This document shows, piece after piece, positions 9,770 to 28,472 of a DNA stretch of 28,707 nt. The notes under the pieces were generated by a model. That model was not told the origin of the DNA and searched no databases. It saw only the letters and a list, made by a program, of their open reading frames with translations. The stretch comes from a virus (Duplodnaviria > Heunggongvirae > Uroviricota > Caudoviricetes). The stretch's first letter is position 1. Every line of letters begins with the position of its first letter. Where the stretch lies: IMG/VR virus record IMGVR_UViG_2778261009_000004, one strand, 5' to 3'. Both the position numbers and the translations under genes were made by a program.

Positions 9770-9782
9770 GTTCTCCACCTGC

Positions 9783-9806
9783 AAAAAAGCCCCGGATAAC
9801 CGGGGC
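9783..9806 (-). terminator. Intrinsic terminator / attenuator directly downstream of major tail gene V
   Basis: Minus strand: perfect 7-bp stem GCCCCGG-TTAT-CCGGGGC followed by TTTTTT, 20 nt after the V stop and just before the G SD. Confidence 0.55.
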
Positions 9807-9826
9807 AAATGATGAGTATCGTCCTG

Positions 9827-10576
9827 TTAACCTGCGGCGCTGACAGCCACCGCAGCCACTGCCACAAAATCGCCGTCAGAAGTCATGCCCACAATGCTGA
9901 CACTGCCCTGCTTCACGCCTTTCACCGTGGCCACAAGCCCGTTCAGGGTCACCGTGGCAGTCTGTGGATCTGTCGAATGCACACTGATCGCTTTGTCACT
10001 GGCTCCGTCAGGTTTTACTGTAAAGGTCAGCGTGGTGGTTGCTCCCACTTTTACACTGGCAGATGCCGGTGCCACCGTCAGCCCGGTAACGCTCACTGTT
10101 TCAGTGCCTTCCTCTGCCAGATACGGACGCCCCACACCGCTGATTTTCACTGTGCGGGTCATCACGTCTTTTGAGGCAATGGTTTTACCCAGTGAGCTCA
10201 GCCAGCCACGGAAAACATCAACAGTGCCGTTGGGATATTTGATACGAAACGCGCAGACTTCACCGGAGTCGAACAACTGAACCAGTTTTTTCTGCCCGCT
10301 GTCACCCGGACGCCAGGCCAGCGTCGCCGAAGTATCACCGACGGATTTCTGCCCCTGGGTTGTCGTTTTCCAGTCTGCATCTTCATCATCGAGATAAGTG
10401 TCATCTTCTGCATCAGCGGTCATTTCGCCAGGTTGCAGATCCTTCACCATCGCAAGACGCAGCCAGTCAGTGTCCGATAAAGGGTTCGCAAACGCATCGC
10501 CCTTGCCGGTGTACATCCAGAACGTCGTTCCCGCACCTTTCGTTTTTGCCAGTGGATTTGGTGTGGTCATTGCCAC
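9827..10576 (-). CDS. V: Major tail protein V with C-terminal Ig-like (Big_2-type) domain
   Basis: 249-aa ORF in the V position (lambda V is about 246 aa); C-terminal ...VTGLTVAPASASVKVGATTTLTFTVKP... Ig-like repeat. Confidence 0.9.
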   Translation of the reverse strand: MAMTTPNPLAKTKGAGTTFWMYTGKGDAFANPLSDTDWLRLAMVKDLQPGEMTADAEDDTYLDDEDADWKTTTQGQKSVGDTSATLAWRPGDSGQKKLVQLFDSGEVCAFRIKYPNGTVDVFRGWLSSLGKTIASKDVMTRTVKISGVGRPYLAEEGTETVSVTGLTVAPASASVKVGATTTLTFTVKPDGASDKAISVHSTDPQTATVTLNGLVATVKGVKQGSVSIVGMTSDGDFVAVAAVAVSAAG

Positions 10577-10581
10577 CTCCT

Positions 10582-10995
10582 TTAATTCGTGTACGTGATC
10601 TGGTACGTGATTTCCGCCATCGCCCAGGTGGCCATCTCATTATCACGTTGATAGTTAAAACCGAGAGGGAGCAGGGTGTCGATGAGTCCGGAAAGTGCCG
10701 GTATATCATTCAGGGCCGGGAAAATGGTGCTCTCCATCCACATATCCAGCTCTGAATCCGGTGCCTGTGCCCGGATGAAGACAGCAATATGCAGAACAGC
10801 CTGCCAGTCATCTTCATCCGTCATTTTTCCGGTGTACTGAGCATCACTCAGCCACACCGCCACGGCAGGCAGTTCCTGCGCATCAATAAATGCCGGAAGC
10901 CCGTCAAAAAACGTGGCGCTGTCTCCACACTGTTCCCGAAGGCGTGCCAGTACGGCCTGGCGGATTTGTGTATGTCGGTTCATCGGGTCAGCCAT
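10582..10995 (-). CDS. U: Tail terminator protein U
   Basis: 137-aa ORF with ATFFDG...PAVAVWL...DSELDMWMES motif similar to lambda U. An alternative ATG at 10983 overlaps the Z stop in an ATGA arrangement. Confidence 0.85.
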   Translation of the reverse strand: MADPMNRHTQIRQAVLARLREQCGDSATFFDGLPAFIDAQELPAVAVWLSDAQYTGKMTDEDDWQAVLHIAVFIRAQAPDSELDMWMESTIFPALNDIPALSGLIDTLLPLGFNYQRDNEMATWAMAEITYQITYTN

Positions 10996-11558
10996 AACCT
11001 CAGTTGTTGTTTCAGTGCATACCCCAGCTGTTTCGGCATTTCCGCAGCAATAATGCGGTCGCGGGCATCTTCAAATGCCTGTGTCAGCGGTCCGGACAGC
11101 GGGACTTTCACCACATCAATGGGGTAACGATTTTTGCCATCAATACGCCGCATCACATGCCAGCGACCATTCGCCAGTTGCTGAATAAACGCATCCCGGA
11201 AAAGATATTTACCCACCTTCAGCACACTGCCACGGTACTGCAGTTTTCCACCACGCCGGGCCAGTCTGACCCGGGCTGTCCCCAGCTTAATAGCGGGCAG
11301 ATTGCCCCGGTTAACGCGGATCCTGGCCGTCATTTTTCCTGACGGACTGGCTTTAAACACCCGGACACGCTGACGTACCAGTTTCAGGGGGATCCCTTTC
11401 ACCTGGTTATCTCCCGCAACGGTATTCCCGGCAACCTGCCGGGTGGCGACCGAGACCGCTTTCTGTGCCACACGGTTTATCGCCCATGCGCTGGCCTGTG
11501 GCACCATACGGGTATCAAGGCTGTTCAGATTACGGATGGCATTCTCAAGCCCCTTCAT
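10980..11558 (-). CDS. Z: Tail completion protein Z
   Basis: 192-aa ORF, same length as lambda Z; position between FII-like and U. Confidence 0.85.
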   Translation of the reverse strand: MKGLENAIRNLNSLDTRMVPQASAWAINRVAQKAVSVATRQVAGNTVAGDNQVKGIPLKLVRQRVRVFKASPSGKMTARIRVNRGNLPAIKLGTARVRLARRGGKLQYRGSVLKVGKYLFRDAFIQQLANGRWHVMRRIDGKNRYPIDVVKVPLSGPLTQAFEDARDRIIAAEMPKQLGYALKQQLRLWLTR

Positions 11559-11569
11559 CCCACACCTCT

Positions 11570-11845
11570 TTACTCAATAAAGATCATTGGCTTACCGTTA
11601 AAACGTTCATGCCGTGTAACCGTCCATTGTTGTCCGTCATAAACAACGCGATCCCCGCGCCGTGGGCGGTATCCCGAAGAAAACACCACCAGAGAGACCG
11701 CAGGTCCGGACAGAGCATTCAGCTCTGCCAGTGTTTCTCCCGGGATCACAGTCATATCGACATCATTAATCGAGGCTGTCTTTCCCATCTTTCTAACCGT
11801 GATAGCATCCATACGCGCTGCCAGCCGGGAAAAGGGATCAGACAT
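11570..11845 (-). CDS. Head-tail joining protein (FII-like)
   Basis: 91-aa ORF; N-terminal MSDPFSRLAARMDAI and ...RRGDRVVYDGQQWTV resemble lambda FII motifs (MADFDNLFDAAIARA ... RRGDTLTIGEENFWV, from memory). Position immediately upstream of Z. Confidence 0.6.
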   Translation of the reverse strand: MSDPFSRLAARMDAITVRKMGKTASINDVDMTVIPGETLAELNALSGPAVSLVVFSSGYRPRRGDRVVYDGQQWTVTRHERFNGKPMIFIE

Positions 11846-12161
11846 TGAGTTTTACCGGCACTTCTTCTGCACTGGTTCCGGCATCTGCCCAGACAACCCC
11901 GACCAGCGGATCAGAGCCGCTGTTAGTCAGCTGAACTTTTCCGGACTTCAGATAAACCTTCTTACCCGTTTTCATGTCATCCGTTTTCAGCTTAGGCAGC
12001 ATAAACACACCTTCGGTCATGCCGTCGCCTGTTTCACCCTGTGGAATATCGGTCAGCGCCACCGCAAAAACATCGCCCACCTGCACCAGATCTCCGCTGC
12101 TGATGGCTGCACTGGCAACAATCGCCACCGTTTTTCCTTCTTCTACAAAATTCTTTGCCAT
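11838..12161 (-). CDS. DUF2190-like small capsid-associated protein (possible decoration/cement protein)
   Basis: ATG at 12161 (MAKNFVEEGKTV...) with SD GGAGA; small beta-rich protein immediately downstream of the major capsid gene. The track ORF is extended to 12206. Confidence 0.5.
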   Translation of the reverse strand: MAKNFVEEGKTVAIVASAAISSGDLVQVGDVFAVALTDIPQGETGDGMTEGVFMLPKLKTDDMKTGKKVYLKSGKVQLTNSGSDPLVGVVWADAGTSAEEVPVKLNV

Positions 12162-12204
12162 AACTGTCTCCGCACAGCCCCGTTCAGGGGCTGATTTCAG
12201 GTAC

Positions 12205-12225
12205 AAAAAAAGCCCTTACGGGCCA
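12205..12225 (-). terminator. Putative intrinsic terminator / attenuator downstream of the major capsid gene
   Basis: Minus strand GCCC-GTAA-GGGC (GNRA loop) followed by TTTTTTT, between the capsid stop (12248) and the next start (12161). Confidence 0.4.
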
Positions 12226-12247
12226 TCAGAGTTGTTGTCTGCGACGT

Positions 12248-14206
12248 TTACGCCGTACATTTCACCAGACCGCGGTGATCAACTGGCGCGACACCGGCGT
12301 CAATACGCACTTTCGTTGTCACGCCATCCACACTGAAGCCCTCCATCTGATCAATATATGGCGTATCCACACCGTTGAGATAAGCCACTTCAATCGTATC
12401 GGAGCCTTTTGACGCAGCCAGGTAGAAGGTGGTCTGGCTGTTATCATCAAGACGAGGCTCTGCAATAACGGTCGCAAAATCTTTCACCGGGTTAATAATA
12501 CCGGCGTTAATGTCAGCCCCCTTGACACTTGAGGAGCGAATGACCTGGTTAGCAACAGACTCCATCGCCGTCGGTACCAGTACGAACGCAGGACGAATAT
12601 TCAGATGACGCTCCCCCTCTTTCTGAACGCGCATCAACTGGCGGGCTTTATCCAGCGATGCCACGTCCATTGCCGCGCTCTCCAGTACGTTTGCATGTTT
12701 CGCTTTATCGAACAGACTTACATTATCTGTGGAGATTTTCGGGTTAGACGTCAGAATGGCATAAACCAGATCGGCAATAGTGGATTTCGCCGCACGGCCC
12801 AGTTTCATCGGGACATCGGTCAGCATATTCAGATCATCATTGATAATGGCCTGACGGGTGATACTGAACAGCTCGCCATAGGTCGCCAGTGCAATAGTGG
12901 CCTGTTTATCTCCGGTGGTGACGTATTTATATTCCGCCCCTTCACGCACCTGACGTAGAGCACTGAAGCCCCCCATACCCACACGATGGGCAATTTTAAA
13001 ATCAGACAACTGACCTTTCCGCGTCCACTGTTCATAGGTTTCAGGGGCATCTTCCCAGCCCTGCAGAATGGCTTTGTTCGCAACATCCAGCAGAATATTA
13101 CCGAAGTCAGACGTACTGTGTGTGAACGCCGCACCGACCATCTGCATCGGGTTATAACCGGAAACCCCAATACCCCGTTCAGTTAGTGACATACGGGCAT
13201 ATTCACGCAGGGTCATCCCGTTGTAGACATTATCACGTTCGGTTTTTTCAAATCCGGCACGCGCCATCAGCGCCTGGCGAATCCCGTCCCCCACAAAATT
13301 ACCGTTACCGGCATAAATATGAGCCGGGGTATTTTTATTGGATGGCGTGGACTCGCGCCCCATCTCGTTCAACAGCTTTTCACGGGCCTGCTCCAGCGAA
13401 CATTCAGGATCGGCAAGACACTGGGCCTGCAGCGTCTGATAACGCCCGCCAAACATGGCAAACAGATCATTAATACCGTTTACACGCGCTTTTTGCTCTG
13501 CCAGTACCTGCGCACGGATACTGTTTTCATCCACCACGGGTGCTGCTGCCTGCACTGGCGTCCGGGAGGCTGCAGGTTCATCATCCTGTACGCGTGGAGC
13601 ACTGTTGCGTGGCGGAGTAATCATGTTTCGAATGGATTCCGGCATCTTTTTAAATTCCTCTGTACGTTTTGACTGAATACATGCCATTGCCTTAACGGCT
13701 GGTGTCACCTGATCAGCAAATCCCTGTGCCAGACATTCGGCACCGGACATCCAGGTCTCATCCGCCAGCATGGCAGCAATTTCATCGGTGGTTTTCCCGG
13801 TTTTCTGTGCATAAGCGGGTAACAGAACCGCCTCAACTTTATCGAGCAGGTCGGCATAGGTGCGCATGTCCTCCGCATCACCGCCCGTAAAGCCAAATGG
13901 TTTATGAATCATCATGAAGGAGTTTTCCGGCATAATGACCGGGTTTCCCACCATCGCAATGACCGACGCCATTGACGCCGCCACACCGTCGACATAAACG
14001 GTAATGGACGCACCATGTGTTTTCAGTGCATTAAAAATGGCGATGCCTTCAAAGACATCGCCACCCGGTGAATTAATATGGAGATTAATGTGGGTGATAT
14101 CGCCCAGTGCATTCAGATCACTGATAAACTGCTTCGCTGTAACACCCCAGAAACCAATCTCGTCATAAATATAAATATCCGCGTCACTCTGGTGACCTGC
14201 CTGCAT
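12248..14206 (-). CDS. Prohead serine protease (ClpP/S49-like) fused in frame to a scaffold-like linker and an HK97-fold major capsid protein
   Basis: One uninterrupted ORF. N-terminal part DIYIYDEIGFWGV...INSPGGDVFEG...MMIHKP is ClpP-like; middle is a charged helical linker; C-terminal about 330 aa has HK97-type capsid motifs (...GYNPMQ...ITRQAIINDDLNML...). First ATG after the portal stop is 14206; the track ORF start 14467 overlaps portal. Confidence 0.8.
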   Translation of the reverse strand: MQAGHQSDADIYIYDEIGFWGVTAKQFISDLNALGDITHINLHINSPGGDVFEGIAIFNALKTHGASITVYVDGVAASMASVIAMVGNPVIMPENSFMMIHKPFGFTGGDAEDMRTYADLLDKVEAVLLPAYAQKTGKTTDEIAAMLADETWMSGAECLAQGFADQVTPAVKAMACIQSKRTEEFKKMPESIRNMITPPRNSAPRVQDDEPAASRTPVQAAAPVVDENSIRAQVLAEQKARVNGINDLFAMFGGRYQTLQAQCLADPECSLEQAREKLLNEMGRESTPSNKNTPAHIYAGNGNFVGDGIRQALMARAGFEKTERDNVYNGMTLREYARMSLTERGIGVSGYNPMQMVGAAFTHSTSDFGNILLDVANKAILQGWEDAPETYEQWTRKGQLSDFKIAHRVGMGGFSALRQVREGAEYKYVTTGDKQATIALATYGELFSITRQAIINDDLNMLTDVPMKLGRAAKSTIADLVYAILTSNPKISTDNVSLFDKAKHANVLESAAMDVASLDKARQLMRVQKEGERHLNIRPAFVLVPTAMESVANQVIRSSSVKGADINAGIINPVKDFATVIAEPRLDDNSQTTFYLAASKGSDTIEVAYLNGVDTPYIDQMEGFSVDGVTTKVRIDAGVAPVDHRGLVKCTA

Positions 14207-15728: not shown

Positions 15729-15940
15729 CAGAACCTCGCCAGCCGGTACCCGGGATGCCCCCGTCGTCGTGTAATCAGAGCCGCAAGGCGGCGCTCCCAC
15801 TCCTGCCGTCCCTGCCGGATCTCAGATAAGTTTTCCATGGTCATCTGCTGACCATTAAAGGTGACGGATTTTCCGTCCAGCACCGCCATTTCAGCTTCCG
15901 TATAACGCTGAATCATGGCTTCGATATCATTCTGGTTCAT
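15728..15940 (-). CDS. Head-to-tail joining protein W-like
   Basis: About 70 aa; C-terminal ...LITRRRGHPGYRLARF resembles the lambda W C-terminus (...RRRGPAGFYV, from memory). ATG at 15940 overlaps the terminase stop (ATGA). Order terminase-W-portal as in lambda. Confidence 0.7.
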   Translation of the reverse strand: MNQNDIEAMIQRYTEAEMAVLDGKSVTFNGQQMTMENLSEIRQGRQEWERRLAALITRRRGHPGYRLARF

Positions 15941-18039
15941 AACCATCCTCCGGAAGTCAGCCAGGGGTTAACATCGTCAGTTACTGTTTTCTTCCGTTTT
16001 TGTTTTTTAACAGGCGTGGATACCGGTTCCGGTGTGGGTGACGGTTCGGTACTGTCCGGGACACACTCCAGCCAGGTTTCCCGGCTCGCCCACTCCGGTG
16101 CATCCGGCCAGCGGATCTTTTCGTATCCATGCAGAATGACCAGAGCCTCGGCATACACCATCAGGTCAAAAGCTTCGTTGGCACCGCGACCCGGCTTACT
16201 CCATTTCCCGTCACTGCTCCGCTCTTCATACGTCAGTTCGTCGTAAAACCAGCTCCCCAGCCAGTCAGGGAAATGCACATAGCCGGGACCTGGCGAGTCA
16301 CGCCATAACGCGTTATTCACCCGGTCTTTCAGGGCATCCGTCTGAAGAAGCCAGAGCGGCACATGACCTGCGGCCTGCGCCCGGCGGCCCGTTCGTCCGG
16401 TGTTATCAGGGAATGTACGGCTGATCAGTTTTGCGCGCCGGATGCTGTCACCCTTAAACAGGTAAATACGTTTACCAAGGCCATCACGACGGCAACGACG
16501 CCAGAATTTATAGGCATTATCAGTGACCCCGTCTTCACCGCCGGAGTCCACCGCCATTGCCATCAGTCGCATTTGTTGAGAAGGATCGGAGGCCAGCGGC
16601 CAGCTTTTATGAAAAACATCCGTCAGCAGGACATCCCAGTCTTCCGGATAGCTGGCCGGATCAATTCGCTGGCTCTCCCCGTCGCTGTCACCGCGCAATG
16701 ACTGCGTGATGTTGTAACGATCAATAATCCAGCGTTCGCCACGGCTGCCATAGCCCGTTACCTGAACCACAAAACGGCGATGACGTCCCGCCTGCACATC
16801 CACTGTCGCCACAAGGAAATTAACGCCATCCGGCACACTGCGGGAAGGAACTGGCTCTGCCCGCTGCTCAAGCAATTCACTTTTTCGTTGCTCCATGCTG
16901 GCGCGGGGAAGATAAGGTAATCCCCAGTCGGTATTGATAACCGTCTTGAGTGTCTCTTCACTTCCGGTTGTCTCGTATTCCTGTTCTGCAGTAAGCAGTT
17001 TGTAAACGAGTTGCGAGAGTGTCTGATAAGCAGCTGCCGGACCCTCCATCCAGAATGACGCAATACGTGAACGCCGGGGATCACCATAACGACTGCCATC
17101 TGCATTGATGGATTCACCATCCCGTAACCAGACCCCACGTCCGTTCAGCTCGCGTTTTTGTTCAGGCAAAATCCGTCCTGAACAGGAAGGACACTGAATA
17201 TAAGCCGCCTCACTTGCCAGCACAGGATCGGCAATATCACGGAAACCAGCAACCACATCGCCGCAGGGCTGAAAATACTCACCACAGTGTGGACAGGGCC
17301 AGTACCAGCGACGGCGATCGCCACGGTTATAGAGCGACAGGATCCCCGTGGTTGGTGGAGCCTCATGCGGTGAAGTCCGTCGCCATTTCACATCCTTCAC
17401 ATCCCTGCCGGGGGAACTCTCCACCAGCGTCATACCACTGGACATAAATGTGGTGGTACGTTTTGAGGCAAGAGAGAAGGCATCCCCCTCACCATCAATA
17501 TCTTCCGGAAAACGGTCATAATCCGTCAGCGCCACGCATTTATAATCTGATGAAGACATGATATTGACTGACGGCCAGCCGATTTTCAGGTAGTTGCCAG
17601 CAAGGACTGTTCTGTCATAAACGTTGTTGTCATTTTTGTTCGGACTCAGGCGACTGACCACTTCCGGGCTGACGCGAAACGTTCTGGCGAGTCGTTTTTT
17701 GGAGTGTTCGCGGGCTTTTTCCTCCGTCATCTGAATGATCAGCATATCAGCAGGATCGCAAATCACGTTGTAAATCACCCAGCCGTCAATCAGGCCGATA
17801 GTCTTGCCGGTTCGTGCCGGGCCAACAAATATCACTGCGTCGTATTCACGCGAGGCCAGGCAGTTCATAGGCTCAATAACATACGGTGCCACCAGCGGAT
17901 CCCACGGGACTGAGTTCCCTGCCCCCATAGGCACCCGCATATACTGAGCAACGGCATCAGCAACCCGCATTCGTCTCGGTGCGCGAAGGATATAACCTGA
18001 ATCGGTTCGTGCTGCCTTTGCGGTTTCCTGATTCAGCAT
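15937..18039 (-). CDS. Terminase large subunit (GpA-like)
   Basis: 700 aa; Walker A VIFVGPARTGKT; Cys cluster CPHCGEYFQPCGD...CPSCSG; start overlaps the small-subunit stop (TAATG). Confidence 0.9.
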   Translation of the reverse strand: MLNQETAKAARTDSGYILRAPRRMRVADAVAQYMRVPMGAGNSVPWDPLVAPYVIEPMNCLASREYDAVIFVGPARTGKTIGLIDGWVIYNVICDPADMLIIQMTEEKAREHSKKRLARTFRVSPEVVSRLSPNKNDNNVYDRTVLAGNYLKIGWPSVNIMSSSDYKCVALTDYDRFPEDIDGEGDAFSLASKRTTTFMSSGMTLVESSPGRDVKDVKWRRTSPHEAPPTTGILSLYNRGDRRRWYWPCPHCGEYFQPCGDVVAGFRDIADPVLASEAAYIQCPSCSGRILPEQKRELNGRGVWLRDGESINADGSRYGDPRRSRIASFWMEGPAAAYQTLSQLVYKLLTAEQEYETTGSEETLKTVINTDWGLPYLPRASMEQRKSELLEQRAEPVPSRSVPDGVNFLVATVDVQAGRHRRFVVQVTGYGSRGERWIIDRYNITQSLRGDSDGESQRIDPASYPEDWDVLLTDVFHKSWPLASDPSQQMRLMAMAVDSGGEDGVTDNAYKFWRRCRRDGLGKRIYLFKGDSIRRAKLISRTFPDNTGRTGRRAQAAGHVPLWLLQTDALKDRVNNALWRDSPGPGYVHFPDWLGSWFYDELTYEERSSDGKWSKPGRGANEAFDLMVYAEALVILHGYEKIRWPDAPEWASRETWLECVPDSTEPSPTPEPVSTPVKKQKRKKTVTDDVNPWLTSGGWL

Positions 18040-18533
18040 TACTCCTCCTGCTGTAATTCCTCCTCATCATCCGCACCTGCTTCAGTCACCCGCAGGGCTA
18101 TCTGATCGCGCAGATCATCAATAATGGACTGAACACGGCTCACAGCGGCAGGCTGCAGACCGCAGTCACGTTCAAGAATATCCGGTAATGTCTCCAGCAC
18201 CTGCACGACCGCTTTTGCCCAGATGGCAAACTCCCGTCTGACATCACTGGCCGGAATGAGTTGTGCCGTTTCCTGTTCGAACTTAAGACGCTCACGTTCA
18301 GACTGATACCAGGCTTTGCGCTCATGCGCGTCCATTTCGCCTTCTGCAACCGGCGGTGGTAATGCCAGAAATGCCGACACAATATCAACCACCCGATAAA
18401 GCTTGAGGTTGCTTTCATGCCCCCCTGCAACGGGTAGATTTTGCAGCCTTGCCGCAGCAGTCTGGCGATGTACACCTGACAATGCCGCCAGTTGACTGAT
18501 ATTCAGCGTCAGATTTTTTAACTCTCGATCCAT
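18039..18533 (-). CDS. Terminase small subunit (Nu1-like, N-terminal HTH)
   Basis: 164 aa; N-terminal LNISQLAALSGVHRQTAAARL helix-turn-helix and acidic C-terminus; immediately downstream of the cos-like site. Confidence 0.8.
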   Translation of the reverse strand: MDRELKNLTLNISQLAALSGVHRQTAAARLQNLPVAGGHESNLKLYRVVDIVSAFLALPPPVAEGEMDAHERKAWYQSERERLKFEQETAQLIPASDVRREFAIWAKAVVQVLETLPDILERDCGLQPAAVSRVQSIIDDLRDQIALRVTEAGADDEEELQQEE

Positions 18534-18702
18534 ACCCGCTCCAGAATGTTTTAAACATGCATCTTGCGAACAACTTTAGGCAAACGGTGTTAGTGATGAA
18601 CAAAAAACAATCAGAATCGACACCATAAAAATAAAACCACTGTAATATCAATCAATTACAGTAGTGGTGATGACGAATAAAATTTCAAAAACTAGCCTTT
18701 TT

Positions 18703-18722
18703 CCGCGACGCTCCCGCCCCGT
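18703..18722. other. Putative cos site (cosN core with predicted 12-nt cohesive end GGGCGGGAGCGT, minus-strand orientation, 18708..18719)
   Basis: Minus strand reads ACG GGGCGGGAGCGT CGCGG. Lambda reads ACG GGGCGGCGACCT CGCGGG (from memory): flanks identical, core differs in 5 positions. Located about 170 nt upstream of the Nu1-like gene, with AT-rich (cosB-like) DNA in between. Confidence 0.5.
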
Positions 18723-19085
18723 GGTAGGGACCCCCACTGGGAGGACCCGACAGCCTGACAACCGTTACGAGCATCTGAAACAGAGCTTTACATAATGGCA
18801 TGGGGATAATTCAGAAGGACATCACAGCATGCCCACACAAATTAGTGTGAGTGTCCTGTTTCTTACTACGCGCAGGACTGACGAGCATGAGGGGAAAATA
18901 CGCGAACCGAAATGCCTTATCTTCAGAAATGCAGCCGGCATCCGAACTGGACGATATTGTAAATTCACCTAAATACGAGGCATTACTGTAGTTGAATTGC
19001 AGTACTGTATTAGCCTTACAGTGACAGAATACGATATTGACTCTGTCACTTGTGAAATGGTCAGAATGGTTAGCAGTTATGGTGA

Positions 19086-19292
19086 TCAGTCAACCACCAG
19101 GGAATAATCCTTCGTATTCTTATCGTGCTTTACTAACGCGGCCTCAATTGCCCTGAATGCTTCCAGAGATACTTGATGTTCTATACATGCAATTACAACA
19201 TCCGGGTAACCCATCGAAATGGTGCTATTAAGCATAGTTTTTACACGAACCTGCTCCTGGGAGGGGGCATCAGTGTATTGATCTTTATGCAT
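19086..19292 (-). CDS. Hypothetical small protein (moron between cos and lysis genes)
   Basis: 68-aa ORF with no family I can recognise; soluble composition. Confidence 0.4.
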
Positions 19293-19587
19293 TTTGTCGC
19301 TCCATTCGTTTGCTCTTCACTTGCGGCTAAAAATATAACGTCAAATCACTCAGCATGAAAGAGTGAAAGTTTCAGCGCGTTTCCCTTACATAATCTGTCG
19401 TTTGTATTCTCTTCAGGCATACCGGAAAGACTAGGTATTGTCACACAACCAATACCATCGACAATCGAGATTTATATCTATTCGGTAATGTTTAAATATA
19501 ACAAAACCCCGTAAAAACGAGGTTTATGGGTAATTTGTATTGTTGAATAGCATCTGATGAGAAATTGATGCTAATACTATAAACATG

Positions 19588-19764
19588 CTAGATTAAATCA
19601 ATCTTGATATCATAGCTTTCAAGACCAGTCATTTTTTCCCGTGCAGTAAACTGGATACTGGTAACTTCTTTCCCGGTCTTTTTCTTAAGCTCAATGATTT
19701 TTTTTGTTATATATTCAGAAATATCTGCTTCTGTTTTTGTTTTTAACTCTTCAATGTTCATCAT
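19588..19764 (-). CDS. gnsB: GnsB-like small protein (Gns family)
   Basis: Own translation: MMNIEELKTKTEADISEYITKKIIELKKKTGKEVTSIQFTAREKMTGLESYDIKIDLI, 58 aa, SD AAGAGGAA. Resembles E. coli GnsA/GnsB (about 57 aa, ...FTAREKMTGLESYD...). Below the track's size cut-off. Confidence 0.7.
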   Translation of the reverse strand: MMNIEELKTKTEADISEYITKKIIELKKKTGKEVTSIQFTAREKMTGLESYDIKIDLI

Positions 19765-19933
19765 TTCCTCTTTTAGTCTGTTATGACTGTCCTAGTACAC
19801 AGTAGTGTCAATTATATGGAGCAAACGTATAAAAGATAAGATGAAACATCGCAATAATCAACATACGACGGTCTAAATTTCACACAAACAGATAAAGATG
19901 ATTATCATTTATTATCAATGCATTAGAATCAAA

Positions 19934-20203
19934 TCAATTCAAGAGTCTCATTGCTGCTTCCAGAATTTCTTCTGAAGTTACATGTCGATCCGCTGCTACA
20001 TAAATGACTTTATGATCTCCGGTCAGAGATGGAAACCCTGCAGCCATTACAGTGAGGTGTGTTGTTTCGCCATTTGGATATTCACGCATGATGGTGTTAA
20101 CTCCGGTCATCACTGGCACTACCATTGCTGGTTCAGAGTTAAAAAAAACTATTATTTTTTTCATAATGTTACCGTAATATGTGAGTATCCATCGACTAGA
20201 CAC
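19934..20203 (-). CDS. Hypothetical protein (possibly YnfN-like)
   Basis: 89-aa ORF; an internal start MKKIIVFFNSEP... near 20164 is possible. Lies between gnsB and cspI, where Qin carries ynfN (from memory). Confidence 0.4.
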   Translation of the reverse strand: MSSRWILTYYGNIMKKIIVFFNSEPAMVVPVMTGVNTIMREYPNGETTHLTVMAAGFPSLTGDHKVIYVAADRHVTSEEILEAAMRLLN

Positions 20204-20212
20204 TAAGCAAAA

Positions 20213-20232
20213 AAGCTCCCGAAGGAGCCTTC
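20213..20232 (-). terminator. Putative terminator downstream of cspI
   Basis: Minus strand GGCTCC-TTCG-GGAGC followed by TTTTTTGC. Confidence 0.35.
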
Positions 20233-20435
20233 ATTTTCACTTTCTTAAATCTAACGACAGATGGCTAACATTTAAGTATTGTGAAATATTATCAAATGTA
20301 ATCATCATTGATTTACAAAAGATACATTTTGCCCCGAAAGGATTTCTGTCAGAAACATCAAAAGATGATGTTCTATACTGAGAACCATGGCAACACGGGC
20401 ATCTAAAGTGAATATGGTTTGTAATATTTTCTACC

Positions 20436-20651
20436 TCAAAGTGCCACTACATGAACAGCTGCAGGGCCTTTAGGTCCGTTCTCAATACCAAATTCGACTT
20501 CCTGATTCTCAGTTAACGTTTTGAAATCGTTGCTCTGAATAGCTGAGAAATGCACAAACACATCTTTGCTACCATCTTTCGGCGTGATGAAACCAAAACC
20601 TTTTTCAGGGTTAAACCATTTCACTAAACCAGTCATTTTGTTAGACATCAT
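20436..20651 (-). CDS. cspI: Cold-shock protein CspI
   Basis: (M)[70 protein letters not shown], matching E. coli CspI as remembered. Confidence 0.9.
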
Positions 20652-21011
20652 TATTACCTTTTGAAGAAGTTAGCCCTTGGGCAGAATGGTCCGAAAAAAA
20701 ATATCAGAGAGAAAAACCAACAAGGAAATCTCAAGAGGTACAAATAATAAAATTATAACAATGACTGCTTCAGATAATTTTGTAACAAACCAGAACACCA
20801 TTAACGCATGATTAACCAACCATAGCAAGGATTACTTTTGTAAAGAAAAACACACGAATGAAACAATAGCTTTATTTATTAATAAAACGTGTCATTTTGT
20901 CTAATGACCTTTTATCTTACCCTTAAGATTTCAAGGATTTTGACTCATGGAAGAGTCCTTTTTATTTAAATTTCACATTCAGCGCTAAAAATAATCCGAT
21001 TTAATATTAAT

Positions 21012-22039
<1,028 letters not shown>

Positions 22040-22350
22040 AGATATTTATGATGAGGACGCTCGTGCTTATTGGCAGGATTTTCAATCTTAAAGGAGTACT
22101 GATGCTGCAGATAAGACTCAACTTTTCTGACAATTTTTCTGCTACTTCCAGGAAGACTTGCCGGACGCTCATTCTGGCTGCTGCCTCATAAAACTCCAGC
22201 GTAGCTCCTTCAACACGGTCCATGGCGACATCCAGGCCAAAAATTTCACCGTCAAAGCGTTCTTTGTCCTGTAAGGCTACAGTTACCGTAACTTTATTCT
22301 CAAAATTACGGACTCCTTTCACAACCAGTTCATAGTCTTGAGTCATTGGA

Positions 22351-22566
22351 TTATTCTCCTCTCGCAGCCTTACGCCTGTCTTCTTTAATCTTGAAATAAA
22401 GATTTGTCAGATACGTCAGCAGGCCAAAAACCAGGCTACCCAGCACACCGATTGCAGCCCACTGTGACGGAGTTACTTTATCGAGTAACTGCAATGCCCA
22501 GAAACCAGCATTACCCGCCGATGTGCCATAGGCAACACCTGTTGTTAACTTATCCATTGATTTCAT
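22351..22566 (-). CDS. Class II holin / pinholin (S21-like) with dual-start motif
   Basis: [28 protein letters not shown]...[35 protein letters not shown]: two transmembrane segments, MKSMDK dual start (antiholin/holin), SD GGTGAGGA. The track ORF extends to 22641. Confidence 0.85.
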
Positions 22567-22785
22567 ATCCTCACCCCGATGTACACGGATGGTGCAATAT
22601 GTTTGAAAAGATCGGAGTCTACGGGGTAGTTTTGACAGCACACGTTGTTCTCAACGGCGCTAAAAAAACATACACATTAAAAATGTGGGTAATTATTTTG
22701 AAAGAAAGTCATATATAAAATAATAATACGAGAAATGTTTTCATATTTAGTGTACTGTATACGGCCATTTATACAGGAAAAGCCT

Positions 22786-22956
22786 ATGTCAGAACGTAAA
22801 GACTCAAAATCACGCCGTAATTATCTCGTTAAATGTTCCTGCCCAAACTGCACCCAAGAGTCAGAACACAGTTTTTCAAGAGTACAAAAAGGTGCCCTTT
22901 TGATCTGCCCTCATTGCAACAAAGTATTCCAGACAAATCTTAAAGCTGTAGCCTGA
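22786..22956 (+). CDS. Small zinc-ribbon protein (moron; possibly YdfK/YnaE-like)
   Basis: MSERKDSKSRRNYLVKCSCPNCTQ...ICPHCNKVFQ: CxxC...CxxC. SD AGGAAA 6 nt upstream of ATG 22786. The track ORF starts at 22735. Confidence 0.5.
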   Translation: MSERKDSKSRRNYLVKCSCPNCTQESEHSFSRVQKGALLICPHCNKVFQTNLKAVA

Positions 22957-23019
22957 TTGATTTTATTAGTAACAAGTATTTTTTATATTTTAATAATATA
23001 TTTAAAGCAGATAATAAAA

Positions 23020-23037
23020 AACCCGCCTGAGCGGGTT
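23020..23037. terminator. Intrinsic terminator hairpin (mainly minus-strand orientation)
   Basis: AACCCGC-CTGA-GCGGGTT with an A/T run on the flanks; on the minus strand the hairpin is followed by TTTTTATTAT. Confidence 0.45.
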
Positions 23038-23319
23038 TGAGATTGTGGTGCTTTTTGTGGGAGTCATCCACTTACGCACTTTGTTTTGCGATGCCAGCAG
23101 TTAGCTTCTGCTGTGAAACTATTCATGCAGCAAACCTGCACTTCACCACAATGGTTAGCATACTTTTCCTGATTAAGATTTTGCCAAATATGCTGGCCAT
23201 TGTTTCATGTATTGGACCTCCTTACTTTTTATTAAAGAGATCCAATATTCAATACTCTGTCCGTATCTCTACTCAGGCATCAGCCTTCTTCGTTATCGTA
23301 TACAGACGAGCGATGAATT

Positions 23320-23535
23320 TTAATCAGTAATGATGACATTTGCTGCTGCAGGACCTTTAGCACCACTCTCTATAGAGAAGGTAACCTTTTGACCTTCAAA
23401 TAAGGTTCGATAATTATCATTCTGAATCGCAGAAAAATGCACAAACACATCTTTACTACCATCAACAGGAGAAATAAAGCCGAAACCTTTATCAGCGTTA
23501 AACCATTTTACTAAACCAGTCATTTTATTTGACAT
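23320..23535 (-). CDS. cspB: Cold-shock protein CspB
   Basis: [71 protein letters not shown], matching E. coli CspB as remembered. Confidence 0.9.
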
Positions 23536-23845
23536 TCTACATTCCTTAACTTGAGCCTTTCGGCATAAATGGTTTGCATAACAGAAACGACTTCGTACTT
23601 AATTGGAGAGACTCAAAGAAGGAATAAGTGAATAACACCTGAAATGAGAACTGCTTTAGTAAACTACTTCGTATATCGTCTGTTCTTCAAACCGACGCAG
23701 TCATTAACTCATAGTTGAACATATGAAGCAATGTTTATTTTAGACATCCAGCCACCTTCAACCCTATCAAAAAAGTAGTTTTCTCCAGGAACGTGTGTAT
23801 GGTGCACCAGGTTATCAGTATTAAGGAGTTTTTCTGTCCCCTAAA

Positions 23846-24050
23846 ATGACAGGAATTGTCAAAAACTTTGACTACAAAAGCAGCAAAGGTCTTATATTCC
23901 CATCCGATGGCGTATCGATGCCCAGCTTCACGTTTCAGCTCTCAATCTTCGAGATGCAGAAGAAATTACCACAGGATTACGCGTGGAATTTTGCCGGATA
24001 AATGGTTCGCGTGGACCTTCAACTGCCAATGTTTATCCCGGGATGAGATT
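23846..24050 (+). pseudogene. cspF: cspF/cspH-like cold-shock gene disrupted by a frameshift
   Basis: Frame 1 from ATG 23846 encodes the N-terminal cold-shock-domain motif [22 protein letters not shown] then junk until a stop at 23999. The rest of the domain ([42 protein letters not shown]) lies in another frame from about 23910. The frames switch at GATGGC|GTATCG, about 23909-23912. Confidence 0.55.
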
Positions 24051-24082
24051 CAATATCTCTATTGCCCCATTTAAAGCACAAA

Positions 24083-24102
24083 AACCCGCTTATAAGCGGG
24101 TT
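24083..24102. terminator. Bidirectional intrinsic terminator (candidate tR' for the late operon leader; also 3' of the cspF-like gene)
   Basis: AACCCGC-TTATAA-GCGGGTT followed by TTTTCTACTTTTTT on plus; on minus it is followed by a T-rich run. About 110 nt downstream of the Q stop. Confidence 0.5.
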
Positions 24103-24150
24103 TTCTACTTTTTTCTAAACGTCGGATACACAAAGCCCATCGTTGAGAAA

Positions 24151-24179
24151 ATCTTATCCATGTTTTTTGAAAAATGCAA
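24151..24179 (-). promoter_or_regulatory. Candidate late promoter (PR'-like) immediately downstream of Q
   Basis: Minus strand: -35 TTGCAT (24179..24174), 17-bp spacer, -10 TAAGAT (24156..24151), followed about 50 nt later by the terminator hairpin. Pattern match only. Confidence 0.3.
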
Positions 24180-24210
24180 ACATCATGTCGCCATCTTCAG
24201 CAAAAATCAT

Positions 24211-24963
24211 TTATCTCGTCACCTTCCTCAATTGCGCTTCCGCGTATGCTTCTTCCTGCCAGCACTTTGTTACCAGTTTACCAATGACGTCCGCATACCC
24301 CTTATACCACTGATAATCGGTCAGGTCTGGTACCAGCTTCTGGACATGACGTCGTGCCAGCGTGGTCGGTAAACGACTAAACCGGTTTCCATTACAACGC
24401 CCACAAATCTTATATACCGGTACGCCATGAAACCGGGTTCTTTTTTCATCCAGAACAATCCCTTTACCCTTACACCCTCTGCACGCTGTGCTGACTTCGC
24501 CCTTACCATGGCAATGCTGACATAGTTCCTTTACCCATTCTTCCTTGATTACAGATTCCCCGCGTCTGTAGTGTTTCACCACTTCGCGCAATACATTATA
24601 AAATCCCGTACCTGAACAATGCTCACAGCGAGCCTTACTTGCCGCAGACCTGGAGTAATCAGCAAAGGCAAAATTCACGAGGTAAGGAATAATCTGTAAC
24701 CGGATTTCTTCACTCAATTTGTTCAATGTCGGGTTATCCAGTGCCATCGCGTAATTTAGCAGGCCTTCAATCGCAAACTGAGGGTCCTGAACACCAACTT
24801 TTGCCAGAAATAAGGCCAACCCAAGTGGTGCTTTCGACTGCACCATCCCCTGCGCTGCCATTACATCCGTAATTGTTAAACAACCGGTGCCTGTCGCTGG
24901 AGCGTCATCGCTCAATTTTGGAGATTTTGGGGAGTAATATTTTGGTAAGGCTTCAAGGTTCAT
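24211..24963 (-). CDS. Late-gene antiterminator Q (Qin quuQ-type, four CxxC pairs)
   Basis: 250 aa; CEHCSGTG...CQHCHGKG...CRGCKGKG...CGRCNG zinc-binding motifs; located immediately upstream of the late region. Confidence 0.8.
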
Positions 24964-24976
24964 GCTCGTTCTCCAC

Positions 24977-26065
24977 TTACGCCAGTACGCCAGTTGCCAG
25001 CGCGCGATCGATAAAACGAAATATCAGCTCCAGTTGGGAGCCATACTTCTCTTCAAATGCCACTGTATCCGTATGCAGCTCGTTGTGATGCTTTCTGCAC
25101 AAAGGCAACACAAAGAGATCATGTGCTTTTGTTCCCATTCCGCCCTGCCCGTGACCAATCAGATGATGCGGATCGTCGGCTGGCATACCGCAGCAAGCAC
25201 ACGGCTGTGTCTTAACCCAACGAGTGTATTTCTCCTTAACCCAGCGGCGACGTTTAGGCAGCTTCATGAAAGATTCCGGAGACTCTGGATCAACGGTGAT
25301 GCTTACCACCGTCTTTTCCTGTGGTGGTTTTTGTTGCTGTTGGGCGTAAGGCAACGGTGCAAGATTTTTTGTGCGTTGTTTCAATATGCTGGTGGCGGTC
25401 TGCTCTCCCGGTACGATGTCGCTTTCGCGGTACACCGAGCAGATTTTTTCCGCTGGTAATCCCAGCGAACGACGCGATACAGCCTCAGGTAGTGCATCTA
25501 CCACCTGATTGCAGACCGCCCACCAGGATAATTCAGCCAAAGATAATTCCCGCTCCTGCGTACCGCTTATTGCGTGACGGATGACGTCAATCACCCATGC
25601 TGTCAGATTTTGTTGAGCAAGCAGCTCCAGTGATTCCGATGTCTGGTCACGCAGATGGTTGTCGCAGTGCCAGCACAACACCATTGCGCCGGTACCATAA
25701 CGGTGAATGACTGTTTCAGTGTGATGGTAATCGCCATTAGGCCACTGGCAGGATGTAACATGACGTAATAGCCAGTCAGACAATGCGCCAACGCCGCCAG
25801 CAGCACGAATCACCCGTTCGTTACTAAAAAACGGCAGCAATGTTTTGTCTTCCGCCAGCGGCTGGCGAACGGCAGGAACGACTCCGGATGGCAGATTACG
25901 CATGCTTTTTGGTTCCGGTTCCACCAGCACTCGAGGATTATGAAATATCTGTATGGATTCACGGCCCGGCTTAAGGACCACCAGCCCAAGCTCAGGCACC
26001 AGAACAGGTCTAAGTAATACCCGCACGTTACCTCCAGATCCGTTGCTGGAAAGTGCGGGACGCAC
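24977..26065 (-). CDS. DUF968 protein (YdfU-like) with C-terminal HNH-like Cys/His motif
   Basis: 362-aa ORF; C-terminal ...CACCGMPADDPHHLIGHGQGGMGTKAHDLFVLPLCRKHHNELH resembles an HNH/His-Me finger. True start may be an internal Met (for example about 25903). Confidence 0.6.
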   Translation of the reverse strand: MRPALSSNGSGGNVRVLLRPVLVPELGLVVLKPGRESIQIFHNPRVLVEPEPKSMRNLPSGVVPAVRQPLAEDKTLLPFFSNERVIRAAGGVGALSDWLLRHVTSCQWPNGDYHHTETVIHRYGTGAMVLCWHCDNHLRDQTSESLELLAQQNLTAWVIDVIRHAISGTQERELSLAELSWWAVCNQVVDALPEAVSRRSLGLPAEKICSVYRESDIVPGEQTATSILKQRTKNLAPLPYAQQQQKPPQEKTVVSITVDPESPESFMKLPKRRRWVKEKYTRWVKTQPCACCGMPADDPHHLIGHGQGGMGTKAHDLFVLPLCRKHHNELHTDTVAFEEKYGSQLELIFRFIDRALATGVLA

Positions 26066-26306
26066 GTGGTGGGCGTTCGGAATAAGGCAGCCTGACAGAG
26101 ATTATCCAGTGCCGATAGTCGAGACTGAGAGCTTTCTTAACCTCGAACCCGCGCCTGCGGTAAGAATGAATCAGCCATTCGGCCTGTTCTGCAGTGCATG
26201 GAGGGTGCTGGAACCATTCAGACTTGAATGCGTGAGAATACCGCCCGTGCGTGCAGGCAAGAACGGGCGAATTATCAGAATTGTAATATTTTACGTTGCG
26301 TGCCAT
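26028..26306 (-). CDS. Hypothetical protein
   Basis: 92-aa ORF upstream of, and overlapping, the DUF968 ORF; no family recognised. Confidence 0.35.
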   Translation of the reverse strand: MARNVKYYNSDNSPVLACTHGRYSHAFKSEWFQHPPCTAEQAEWLIHSYRRRGFEVKKALSLDYRHWIISVRLPYSERPPRASRTFQQRIWR

Positions 26307-26372
26307 CGGTTTTCTCCGGTGGCACGGTGTTACTCAGCGGGAGTTCAGCCCCGTGCAAGATTGTAGATGAGT

Positions 26373-26624
26373 TTATTCTTCTGCAAAAGCTGAAAAGCCT
26401 GCTTTTATTCCGATCTCTTTCAGTGCCTGTAATGAAGTGACAAACTCACCTTCGCGCAAGATAAATCCGTCCGTGACCCGAGCATCCACAAAATTAATTA
26501 ACGCAGCTCCATTCTTTCGCAAACACATAATGCGGTAATGACTAACAAGATTTCCATTTTCAACGCACACAGCATAGAGGCCATCTTCACAAAAAATTTT
26601 ACGCAGTTCTTCGATGTTCATCAT
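26373..26624 (-). CDS. rem: Rem-like protein (Qin prophage)
   Basis: 83-aa ORF MMNIEELRKIFCEDGLYAVCVENG... in the position (between hokD and DUF968) and of the length of E. coli rem, from memory. Confidence 0.6.
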   Translation of the reverse strand: MMNIEELRKIFCEDGLYAVCVENGNLVSHYRIMCLRKNGAALINFVDARVTDGFILREGEFVTSLQALKEIGIKAGFSAFAEE

Positions 26625-26754
26625 CAGAATCCTTCCGGATAATTAGCTCTCCCCTTTAAGGGACCATCCCTCTTCTCCCTGCGCGCTACTTAAGTATTTT
26701 TGATTCTATTCCGGCACCGTCCAGAACTTCAAACGCGTTGAAAATAAAAACAAA

Positions 26755-26772
26755 AACCCGCCGAAGCGGGTT
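26755..26772 (-). terminator. Intrinsic terminator of the relB-relE-hokD operon
   Basis: Minus strand AACCCGC-TTCG-GCGGGTT (UUCG loop) followed by TTTTGTTTTTATTTT, about 70 nt after the hokD stop. Confidence 0.6.
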
Positions 26773-26840
26773 AAGTGCGGGTGCGTTGAGGATGCCTGCC
26801 ACATCAGAGGTGGCGAGGGATTTCTCCCTCGCCGGGTCTC

Positions 26841-26996
26841 TTACTCCTCAGGTTCGTAAGCTGTGAAGACAGCGACCTCCGTCTGGCCGGTTCGGATTCG
26901 TACCTCGCAAAGGTCTTTCCTCGTTACCAGTGCCGTCACTATGACGGTTAAACAGATGACGATCAGGGCGATTAACATCGCCTTTTGCTGCTTCAT
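26841..26996 (-). CDS. hokD: Hok-family membrane toxin HokD (RelF)
   Basis: Own translation: MKQQKAMLIALIVICLTVIVTALVTRKDLCEVRIRTGQTEVAVFTAYEPEE (51 aa). Not in the ORF track because it is under 60 aa. Confidence 0.9.
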   Translation of the reverse strand: MKQQKAMLIALIVICLTVIVTALVTRKDLCEVRIRTGQTEVAVFTAYEPEE

Positions 26997-27066
26997 AGCC
27001 TGCTTCTCTGTCAACGCAAAGCAGAAGTGTCACCTTCGGTGCGAAACAGAGATGTCATGCTTTGGT

Positions 27067-27354
27067 TCAGAGAATGCGTTTGACCGCCTCGCTATATACT
27101 TCCGAGCGTTCTCTTTTCCCAACAGAAATCACGAAAACGACAACTTTCTCGTCTATAACCTGGTATACAAGGCGATAGCCTGAAGACCGGAGCTTAATCT
27201 TGTAACAATCAGGCATACCACGGAGCTTGTTTGCTTCAATCCGGGGTGACTCAAGTACTTCAACCAGCTTCTTTTTCAACTGTTCACGTACCGTCGAGCC
27301 CAGCTTTCGCCATTCCTTTAGTGCCCGCTCGTCAAAATCCAGAAAATACGCCAT
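27067..27354 (-). CDS. relE: mRNA interferase toxin RelE
   Basis: 95 aa, MAYFLDFDERALKEWRKLGSTVREQLKKKLVEVLESPRIEANKLRGMPDCYKIKLRSSGYRLVYQV..., matching E. coli RelE as remembered. Confidence 0.93.
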   Translation of the reverse strand: MAYFLDFDERALKEWRKLGSTVREQLKKKLVEVLESPRIEANKLRGMPDCYKIKLRSSGYRLVYQVIDEKVVVFVISVGKRERSEVYSEAVKRIL

Positions 27355-27593
27355 CAGAGTTCATCCAGCGTCACACGTACTGGCTTAGGATTACGAAGCC
27401 GTTCTTTCACTATCTCCACAAGTTCAGCATCTTCATCACTCAGGAGTGTCTGTTTGAACGGCAAGCGTTCATTGTCAGCGATATACTCGAGCATGAGACG
27501 AAGCGCTTCAGAAGGAGTTACACCCATTTTTTCAAGCGCGGCGTAAGAACGCGCTTTAAGTTCATCGTCAATACGCAGGTTAATGCTACCCAT
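27354..27593 (-). CDS. relB: Antitoxin RelB
   Basis: 79 aa, MGSINLRIDDELKARSYAALEKMGVTPSEALRLMLEYIADNERLPFKQTLL...; stop overlaps the relE start. Confidence 0.93.
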   Translation of the reverse strand: MGSINLRIDDELKARSYAALEKMGVTPSEALRLMLEYIADNERLPFKQTLLSDEDAELVEIVKERLRNPKPVRVTLDEL

Positions 27594-27604
27594 GTCTTAC
27601 ACCT

Positions 27605-27630
27605 CTTGTAATTACAAATGTCATTACAAG
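27605..27630 (-). promoter_or_regulatory. relBE operator (relO-like) overlapping the relB promoter/leader
   Basis: Perfect 12-bp palindrome TTGTAATTACAA (27606-27617) plus a second half-site ATTACAAG (27623-27630), 12-37 nt upstream of the relB ATG (SD AGAGGTG). Confidence 0.6.
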
Positions 27631-27923
27631 TATCGCACTACAACATGCTTAGGGCAAGTCACGAAGGAAGTCAGAAAGTAGTCGTAAGAACGGTGATCAC
27701 TGTCCGCTTTGTGCCAGGAGCAGCCATTGCTAAGTCCATCCTGTATTGTGCAGGTCAGCTCATTTTTAAAGAGTCCGGCCATCATCTTACTGGTACAGAC
27801 ACCATATACTTTGTGACGGTCAGGCTACATATGCACAACTCAACTTATTCATCTATTTTTTGCTTTAGCATGTCAGTGTTGCTTTCTCGTCGGCGGGTGA
27901 GCGGTGACCTGACCTGTCGATAA
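27618..27923 (+). CDS. Hypothetical protein (possibly YdfV-like)
   Basis: 101-aa ORF between relB and flxA; composition not convincingly protein-like. Kept only because Qin carries a gene of about this length here (from memory). Confidence 0.25.
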   Translation: MSLQVSHYNMLRASHEGSQKVVVRTVITVRFVPGAAIAKSILYCAGQLIFKESGHHLTGTDTIYFVTVRLHMHNSTYSSIFCFSMSVLLSRRRVSGDLTCR

Positions 27924-28075
27924 AGGAACGTAGCACGTTTTATGCAACACCCGCATGCGGCAGAAAATTATTGCCGAACGTTTACCCCTGTCAACAAGCT
28001 TTACTTTCTGAGGCGCGCCAGCCCGCTAGGAAAACAATCTGAACATCAAACAATTAATGACACAAGAAATACGAT

Positions 28076-28102
28076 TAAAGATTTTTTTGTGCATGCCGAT
28101 AG
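28076..28102 (+). promoter_or_regulatory. Sigma-28 (FliA) promoter of flxA
   Basis: TAAA (28076-28079), 15-nt spacer, GCCGATAG (28095-28102), against consensus TAAA-N15-GCCGATAA; about 25 nt upstream of the flxA SD AAGGAGA. Confidence 0.65.
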
Positions 28103-28125
28103 TGCTTTTTTAAAAGGAGAAATCT

Positions 28126-28458: not shown

Positions 28459-28472
28459 GTGACAGCCGTATT

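Follow-up and report, generated by a model that had tools for sequence, protein, structure and literature searches.

Organization of the locus

The window, that is, the whole 28,707-nucleotide stretch analysed here (Caudoviricetes, IMG/VR record IMGVR_UViG_2778261009_000004), reads ccgcgacgctcccgccccgt at positions 18703–18722 of the plus strand, the reverse complement of which is ACG GGGCGGGAGCGT CGCGG. On the minus strand, this sequence is followed by AT-rich intergenic DNA and then by the genes for the small (TerS) and large (TerL) terminase subunits, and it is accompanied by the elements collected in Table 1. Beyond terL, the minus strand continues with a small W-sized ORF, a lambda-family portal gene and a ClpP-protease/capsid fusion; no packaging, head or tail ORF in the window is interrupted. 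The RefSeq annotation of a 99.5%-identical Escherichia coli region describes a Qin-like lambdoid prophage with a full set of head and tail genes downstream of the cos position and gives no feature at that position.

Upstream of the site, the window (18750–28707, compared via L138) carries a Qin-like early and lysis region with dicB, ydfD, hokD, rem, ydfU, ydfT and cspB as well as cspF, essD, rrrQ, rzpQ, cspI, ynfN and gnsB, which include cold-shock and toxin morons.

Table 1. Features of the cos region and terminase genes in the window. Offsets are counted from the predicted top-strand nick; a dot marks a feature without strand.
Feature	Position	Strand	Offset	Details
cosQ-like heptamer	18742..18748	-	-29..-23	GGGTCCT
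cosN	18706..18721	-		12-bp core GGGCGGGAGCGT (18719..18708) with a conserved CG on each side
Spacer	18687..18707	-	+13..+33	CGCGGAAAAAGGCTAGTTTTT; common to all cosB types of the phage group
R3-like candidate TerS site	18665..18673	-	+47..+55	TCATCACCA; predicted
Exact IHF consensus	18646..18658	+	+62..+74	WATCAANNNNTTR (TATCAATCAATTA); between the R3-like and R2-like sites
Inverted repeat	18636..18665	.		ACCACTGTAAT / ATTACAGTAGT; 11-nt arms, 8-nt gap, 91% complementary; encloses the IHF consensus
R2-like candidate site	18617..18625	+	+95..+103	TCGACACCA; opposite in orientation to the R3-like and R1-like sites; predicted
R1-like candidate site	18591..18599	-	+121..+129	TCATCACTA; predicted
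Small terminase (TerS)	18039..18533	-		164 aa; Pfam DUF1441, 2.7e-41
Large terminase (TerL)	15937..18039	-		700 aa; GpA_ATPase 1.9e-70 and GpA_nuclease 2.5e-85, full-length

Similarity to the lambda cosN junction

In the original prediction, alignment with the lambda cosN junction placed a lambda-type cos on the minus strand immediately upstream of the terminase genes. The lambda sequence used there was exact: the lambda record (NC_001416) ends in ...GGTTACG (...CCGACAGGTTACG) and starts with GGGCGGCGACCTCGCGGG (GGGCGGCGACCTCGCGGGTTTTCGC). Both flanks (ACG and CGCGG) and core positions 1–6, 10 and 12 are identical between lambda and the window, and the cores differ at positions 7, 8, 9 and 11, so that the five differences in 12 counted originally have to be corrected to four. 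Conserved features of lambda-like phages are the CG pairs on either side of the nicks, the cohesive end's left half and a 7-bp cosQ, and differences in cohesive-end bp 7–12 are common (Feiss et al. 2015, PMC4669245). The core in the window agrees with this description, being bounded by CG pairs (CG-GGGCGGGAGCGT-CG, 18721..18706), with bp 1–6 reading GGGCGG as in lambda and all changes confined to bp 7–12. Rotational symmetry within the 16-bp cosN covers 8 bp in the window site and 10 bp in lambda.

The 16 bases shared with the lambda junction, written as the pattern ACGGGGCGGNNNCNTCGCGG, occur once in the window and in none of 100 dinucleotide-preserving shuffles of it. A scan of the window for a second, more lambda-like cosN found none, the other best matches to the lambda 12-mer having 2–3 mismatches (n=17, against 22 expected). 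The 16-base identity and the surroundings of the site thus bear out its placement as a lambda-type cos.

cosQ and the extent of the cos block

Upstream of the junction lies the heptamer GGGTCCT, which in lambda is cosQ, the packaging-termination signal. Lambda carries it at -30..-24, 1 nt farther from the nick than in the window, and Gifsy-1 also has it at -30. Among the IMG/VR matches listed, all 12 contigs with core GGGCGGGAGCGT have GGGTCCT exactly at -29. The same core is present in at least 120 metagenome contigs; 114 of the 120 listed have cosQ no more than 40 nt upstream, and six of the 120 have at most 30 nt of upstream sequence. The site is thus conserved, at a constant spacing, in more than 100 independent contigs, and its heptamer lies about 30 bp upstream of the nick, as expected of a lambda-type cos. 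A 7-bp cosQ is highly conserved in lambda-like phages (PMC4669245).

An alignment of 13 window-type cos regions delimits the conserved segment on both sides. Likeness between otherwise unrelated upstream contexts starts precisely at GGGTCCT, and in two terS-less contigs the similarity stops near +125, from which we conclude that a block of ~155 bp behaves as a unit.

A chance resemblance to lambda cosN in GC-rich intergenic DNA has to be weighed against this conservation. The bare 20-mer does turn up in a Treponema MAG, in Sphingomonas and in Streptomyces, and these matches, which come without cosQ and cosB, were rejected as chance. The copy in the window, by contrast, lies directly upstream of terminase genes with cosQ at a fixed distance, is absent from all shuffles, recurs in more than 100 contigs and coincides with the ends of deposited phage genomes described below, and the chance reading is effectively refuted.

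Predicted anatomy of the spacer and cosB

Between cosN and terS, the segment 18600–18689 has a G+C content of 27%, against about 50–68% on either side. The suggestion that this AT-rich DNA is a candidate cosB/IHF region is consistent with its base composition, with the exact IHF consensus and with three R-like repeats, the IHF and R sites being predicted. We infer a function for the spacer adjoining cosN, which occupies the place of the cosN-proximal I2 region of lambda; it is identical in the window, phages cdtI and Tritos and records L097 and L102, and near-identical in the mEp213-type phages.

The position of the R3-like site agrees with those of lambda R3 (bp 50–65) and N15 R3 (bp 48–60), and related cosB types carry CATCATCAT-like runs there. 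At the R2-like position, related cosB types have TGTCGA...TCGACA inverted repeats. The pattern TCRWCACYA has four matches in the whole window, three of them within the 83 bp of 18591–18673 in a direct-inverted-direct arrangement; because the pattern was derived after the sites had been seen, this clustering is no independent test and is suggestive only. With the motif likewise defined after the fact, the candidate elements follow lambda in orientation and in the order R3-I1-R2-R1.

The IHF consensus has two matches in the 28.7 kb, where about one is expected, and 11 of the 13 window-type cos regions in the alignment retain it. The cosB of phage cdtI, otherwise unrelated, has an exact IHF consensus at +64 in the same orientation. 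The inverted repeat that encloses the consensus, whose core CTGTAAT-N8-ATTACAG is conserved in relatives, may be regarded as an alternative candidate for a TerS-dimer site.

The mEp460_ev081 record (L137, LR597641) has, at about 441–640, a tandem duplication of ~90 bp of a cosB segment running from GGCTAGTTTTT to TTGTTTTTTGT and holding the R3-like, IHF and R2-like elements. The duplication could be real or an assembly artefact near the physical ends.

Terminase genes and packaging type

The gene downstream of cosB had been called Nu1-like, which holds only as functional analogy and at the level of remote profile homology. Against PHROG profiles, the small terminase gives 7e-74 with family 141 (‘terminase small subunit’) and 8e-10 with phrog_57, to which lambda Nu1 belongs, and lambda Nu1 gives the reciprocal cross-matches (phrog_57 at 1e-76, phrog_141 at 6e-8). 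The protein itself is of the DUF1441 family: the Phage_Nu1 profile (PF07471) does not match it even at E<=10, and BLASTP finds no similarity between it and lambda Nu1. A sequence search against PDB chains likewise returned no match, and weak N-terminal helix-turn-helix (HTH) matches cover residues 3–33. Its ATG lies at +187, compared with +191 in lambda, and the protein is 42% identical to the small terminase of cdtI.

A large terminase of the gpA family is encoded just downstream of cos and is predicted, by analogy with lambda, to be the enzyme that nicks cosN. It is 25% identical to lambda gpA (BLASTP, E 2e-18) and 87% identical overall to the TerL of Tritos. The latter identity is unevenly distributed by our own count from the alignment, at ~98–99% over the ~340 C-terminal residues (nuclease and portal-binding) and ~76% over the ~340 aligned N-terminal residues; the comparison with Tritos thus reveals a mosaic joint inside the window terL. 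Tritos has a cosN identical to that of the window, but its TerS and its cosB differ, the latter being of the cdtI type. A co-swap of TerS, the TerL N-terminus and cosB of the same kind is known from lambda versus phage 21.

The locus resembles lambda in its AT-rich candidate cosB, in a predicted IHF site set between inverted R-like candidate sites, in the placing of terS at about +190 and in the gpA-family TerL. It differs from lambda in a cosB of unrelated sequence, in a TerS of DUF1441 rather than Phage_Nu1 type and in a head module with a ClpP-capsid fusion. Packaging by a headful (pac) mechanism was rejected, since the TerL belongs to the gpA (5′-cos) family and the cosQ-cosN block is conserved.

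Predicted nick positions and cohesive ends

We place the nicks between 18720 and 18719 on the minus strand and between 18707 and 18708 on the plus strand, where they would yield 12-nt 5′ overhangs; these positions are taken from the analogy with lambda and from the boundaries of two phage records. Phage cdtI (AB285204 / NC_009514) starts with GGGCGGGAGCGTCGCGGAAAAAGGCTAGTTTTT and ends in ...GGCCTGCCACG (...CCACG). Phage Tritos (OV696610), the plaque-forming prophage of E. coli LF82 (LF82 prophage 3), has the same first 33 bases and ends in ...CCCCTGCCACG (...CCACG). Both genomes have been opened exactly at the predicted nicks, so that the nick positions given in the original prediction coincide with the starts and ends of two deposited phage genomes, which is strong, if circumstantial, support from the records.

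Lambda may itself have served as the model when the record boundaries were chosen. How the genome ends were set is not stated in the Tritos paper, and in the genome announcement of phage Ayreon cos packaging is only predicted and the genome is opened at terS. Searching the literature for the 12-mer, for its reverse complement and for variants close to it gave, as the sole phage-relevant match, the mEp213/LLS variant GGGCGGCGCGCT. None of the 120 metagenome and 120 IMG/VR contigs listed ends exactly at the nick, an absence that is uninformative because most of these contigs come from prophages or from bulk assembly.

At the junction, the virion-derived assemblies of two close relatives are irregular. 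In the mEp460_4F5 record (L003, LR595868, 1–20), the break lies 5 nt upstream of the nick and 3 nt of the 12-nt core are missing (GGGCGGGAGCG-CGG), which makes this record unusable as evidence on the ends. Flotzy (L013, PP925827, about 925–945) likewise lacks 3 nt of the 12-nt core (GGGCGGCGC-CGCGGG). These 3-nt gaps reflect either mis-joining at cohesive ends that were not ligated or true 9-nt variants.

Several relatives depart from the 12-nt spacing. The Shiga-toxin phages VT1-Sakai (L008, about 928–950) and Stx2_KH16-043 (L009) have the same flanks and cosQ as the window, and the records of VT1-Sakai and Stx2a phages show GGGCGGGCGGG(C)GCGG, with 10–11 nt (GGGCGGGCGG(G)) between ACG and CGCGG. 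Gifsy-2 (L015, 18007–18032) has 14 nt (GGTGGCTTCGGGCT) between CCACG and CGCGGG and no GGGTCCT. These phages may have overhangs other than 12 nt, or their records may contain errors in the G/C run.

Such spacings leave some room for a genuine cos that is nicked away from the lambda-equivalent positions, with an overhang of 10, 11 or 14 nt or shifted by a base or two, as do record starts possibly set by analogy and a TerL that is only 25% identical to lambda gpA. On the other hand, the 12-nt spacing of the CG steps is kept in core GGGCGGGAGCGT and in at least nine other right-half variants with cosQ at -28 to -30, CG pairs flanking the nicks are under selection (PMC4669245), and two independent depositions have the same ends. 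We consider displaced nicks very unlikely and retain the lambda-equivalent positions.

Cohesive ends of this sequence had been expected to be incompatible with those of lambda. By a nearest-neighbour DNA duplex estimate, a rough model rather than a measurement, the ends of either lambda or the window pair among themselves at -19.0 kcal/mol and lambda/window cross pairs reach -9.9 to -11.2 kcal/mol. Cross-annealing would accordingly be much weaker in this model, yet not zero. The weaker pairing supports the expectation in part (-10 to -11 versus -19 kcal/mol) and full incompatibility does not follow, given that a 2/12 end mismatch in lambda/N15 hybrids lowered the yield only about 4-fold (PMC4669245).

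Core variants and packaging specificity

The cohesive-end core has close counterparts among named phages. That of Salmonella phage Gifsy-1, GGGCGGCAGCGT (TTACG GGGCGGCAGCGT CGCAGG in its record), is one base, bp 7, from the window core, and the record agrees with the published differences from lambda at bp 8, 9 and 11 (PMC4669245). Gifsy-1 differs from the window in its right flank (CGCAGG), its lambda/21-type Nu1, its lambda-type head genes and its lambda-like cosB. N15, whose cohesive end differs from that of lambda at bp 9 and 12, is a natural right-half variant too, with a simple cosB that has a single R3 site (PMC4669245). The mEp213-type phages share with the window the CCACG flank, cosQ at -29, the GGCTAGTTTTT spacer and the position of a DUF1441-type terS; a 2025 paper, citing Vahanian et al., lists for mEp213 and LLS the putative cos GGGCGGCGCGCT, which differs from the window's in its right half and belongs with another cosB type. 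Phages cdtI and Tritos agree with the window in the cosQ heptamer, in the 12-nt core and over the initial 33 nt of the left end and have the same ...CCACG right-end flank, and their cosB diverges wholly from that of the window from +34 on. From this divergence, together with a TerS only 42% identical to that of cdtI, it follows that the window probably has a different packaging-initiation specificity.

Scanning IMG/VR for ACGGGGCGG-N6-CGCGG returned at least 120 contigs. Among the matches listed, the lambda core GGGCGGCGACCT was the most frequent (51 contigs), followed by the window core GGGCGGGAGCGT (12), GGGCGGCGCGCT (8), GGGCGGCAGCGG (6) and GGGCGGGAGCGG (4), with other cores in fewer contigs each. 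Core GGGCGGGAGCGT is joined to at least 3–4 unrelated cosB types (among them the window, cdtI and L097 types), and the window-type cosB is joined to four cores, with the endings GAGCGT, GAGCGG, CAGCGG and GAGCAT.

This reassortment of core and cosB and the TerL mosaic relative to Tritos argue against the core setting packaging specificity, which had been the stated interest of a divergent core. Lambda TerL tolerates changes in bp 7–12 of cosN, using cosN-lambda and cosN-N15 equally well, and packaging specificity resides in the binding of TerS to cosB (PMC4669245). The claim that the divergent core matters for specificity is thus not supported, and the core is unlikely to be a specificity determinant; cosB and TerS should be what determines specificity, as they do in lambda versus 21.

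Another role for the right-half variants (GAGCGT, GAGCGG, CAGCGG, CGCGCT, CGACCT and others) might be that they are cohesive-end compatibility groups rather than neutral drift and limit productive hybrid chromosomes. We regard this as unlikely. If it were true, the groups would act when lambdoid prophages and cos-bearing satellites share a cell and cross-acting terminases; the change at bp 7, which adjoins the cosN dyad centre, would define a distinct group, and that group would span phages with at least 3–4 cosB/TerS specificities as well as terS-less islands such as L126.

Distribution and state of the prophage

In a set of 5426 complete E. coli genomes, 2157 contain matches to the 601-nt cos region, with coverage of at least 80% in 750. 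With one genome per species, the exact 20-mer together with cosQ and cosB was found in four records, namely E. coli, E. ruysiae, a Veillonella parvula MAG (L143) and a Bacillota MAG (L145). In the two MAG contigs, which are probably mis-binned, the Escherichia-phage cos block is complete and identical to those of the cdtI and window types. The one-genome-per-species scan showed genuine copies of the exact site essentially only in Escherichia.

Two IMG/VR contigs, L126 with its cos core at 11171 (+) and L078 with its own at 4098, carry a window-type cosQ-cosN-cosB block that extends from -29 to about +125, contains the R3-like, IHF and R2-like elements and has no terminase genes after it. In L126 (ORFs 9409–13550), a D5-type primase fragment and an SSB gene lie upstream of cos, and on the downstream side are genes for a lambda gpE-like capsid protein (Phage_cap_E, 9e-50) and a gpD-like decoration protein (HDPD, 3e-17). 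Such an arrangement looks like a satellite or PICI-type island with the complete cos of its helper. PICIs described for lambda helpers keep cosQ and cosN and have no phage cosB (PMC9026076).

The site in the window could in principle be a fossil, left in a prophage that is no longer inducible or packaged and never cut in this genome. Qin of K-12 is cryptic. The element in the window has a Qin-like immunity and early region, only 28.7 kb of it are visible, and a near-identical copy, that of STEC1590, has gnsB, cspF and ydfB in a form annotated as partial or frameshifted, with the early or accessory genes ydfB and gnsB given as pseudogenes or frameshifted. Speaking against loss of function, terS, terL, the portal, the protease-capsid fusion and the tail genes are intact ORFs with full-length family matches, and the cos block is identical or nearly so to that of plaque-forming phages (Tritos and mEp460 relatives). 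A fossil site is in our view scarcely probable, and the question concerns the activity of one copy rather than the identity of the site.

Proposed function and biological meaning

Taken together, the site is very probably the cos of a Qin-like lambdoid E. coli prophage with a head and packaging module of the cdtI / Tritos / mEp460 / Gifsy-2 type. By analogy with lambda, the small terminase (DUF1441, with its N-terminal HTH) would bind the AT-rich cosB (+47..+129) during lytic growth, probably together with IHF, and would position the gpA-family TerL on cosN. TerL would then nick the strands 12 bp apart, at the conserved CG/G...T/CG steps, leaving virion DNA with the 5′ overhangs GGGCGGGAGCGT at the left end and ACGCTCCCGCCC at the right end. 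Packaging would proceed leftward in window coordinates, taking in terS and terL and then the genes for head and tail, and stop at the next cos, for which the upstream GGGTCCT (cosQ) would be needed. Free drift is known for the half of the core formed by bp 7–12, because a TerL anchored through cosB tolerates changes there.

This exact cos variant is already known as a deposited phage genome end (2007 and 2022), and right-half variation of cosN is already in the literature, with which the window site fits in every respect. The site would mark the genome ends and the packaging direction of a very common type of E. coli prophage and stands unannotated by RefSeq here. It can be used for the consistent opening of prophage and phage assemblies, for reading PhageTerm-type data and in the design of cosmids or transducing particles of this specificity. 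For the lambda-like phages, it adds a further example to the established picture without changing it: specificity belongs to cosB and TerS, constraint acts on cosQ, on the CG pairs at the nicks and on the left half of cosN, and the right half drifts.
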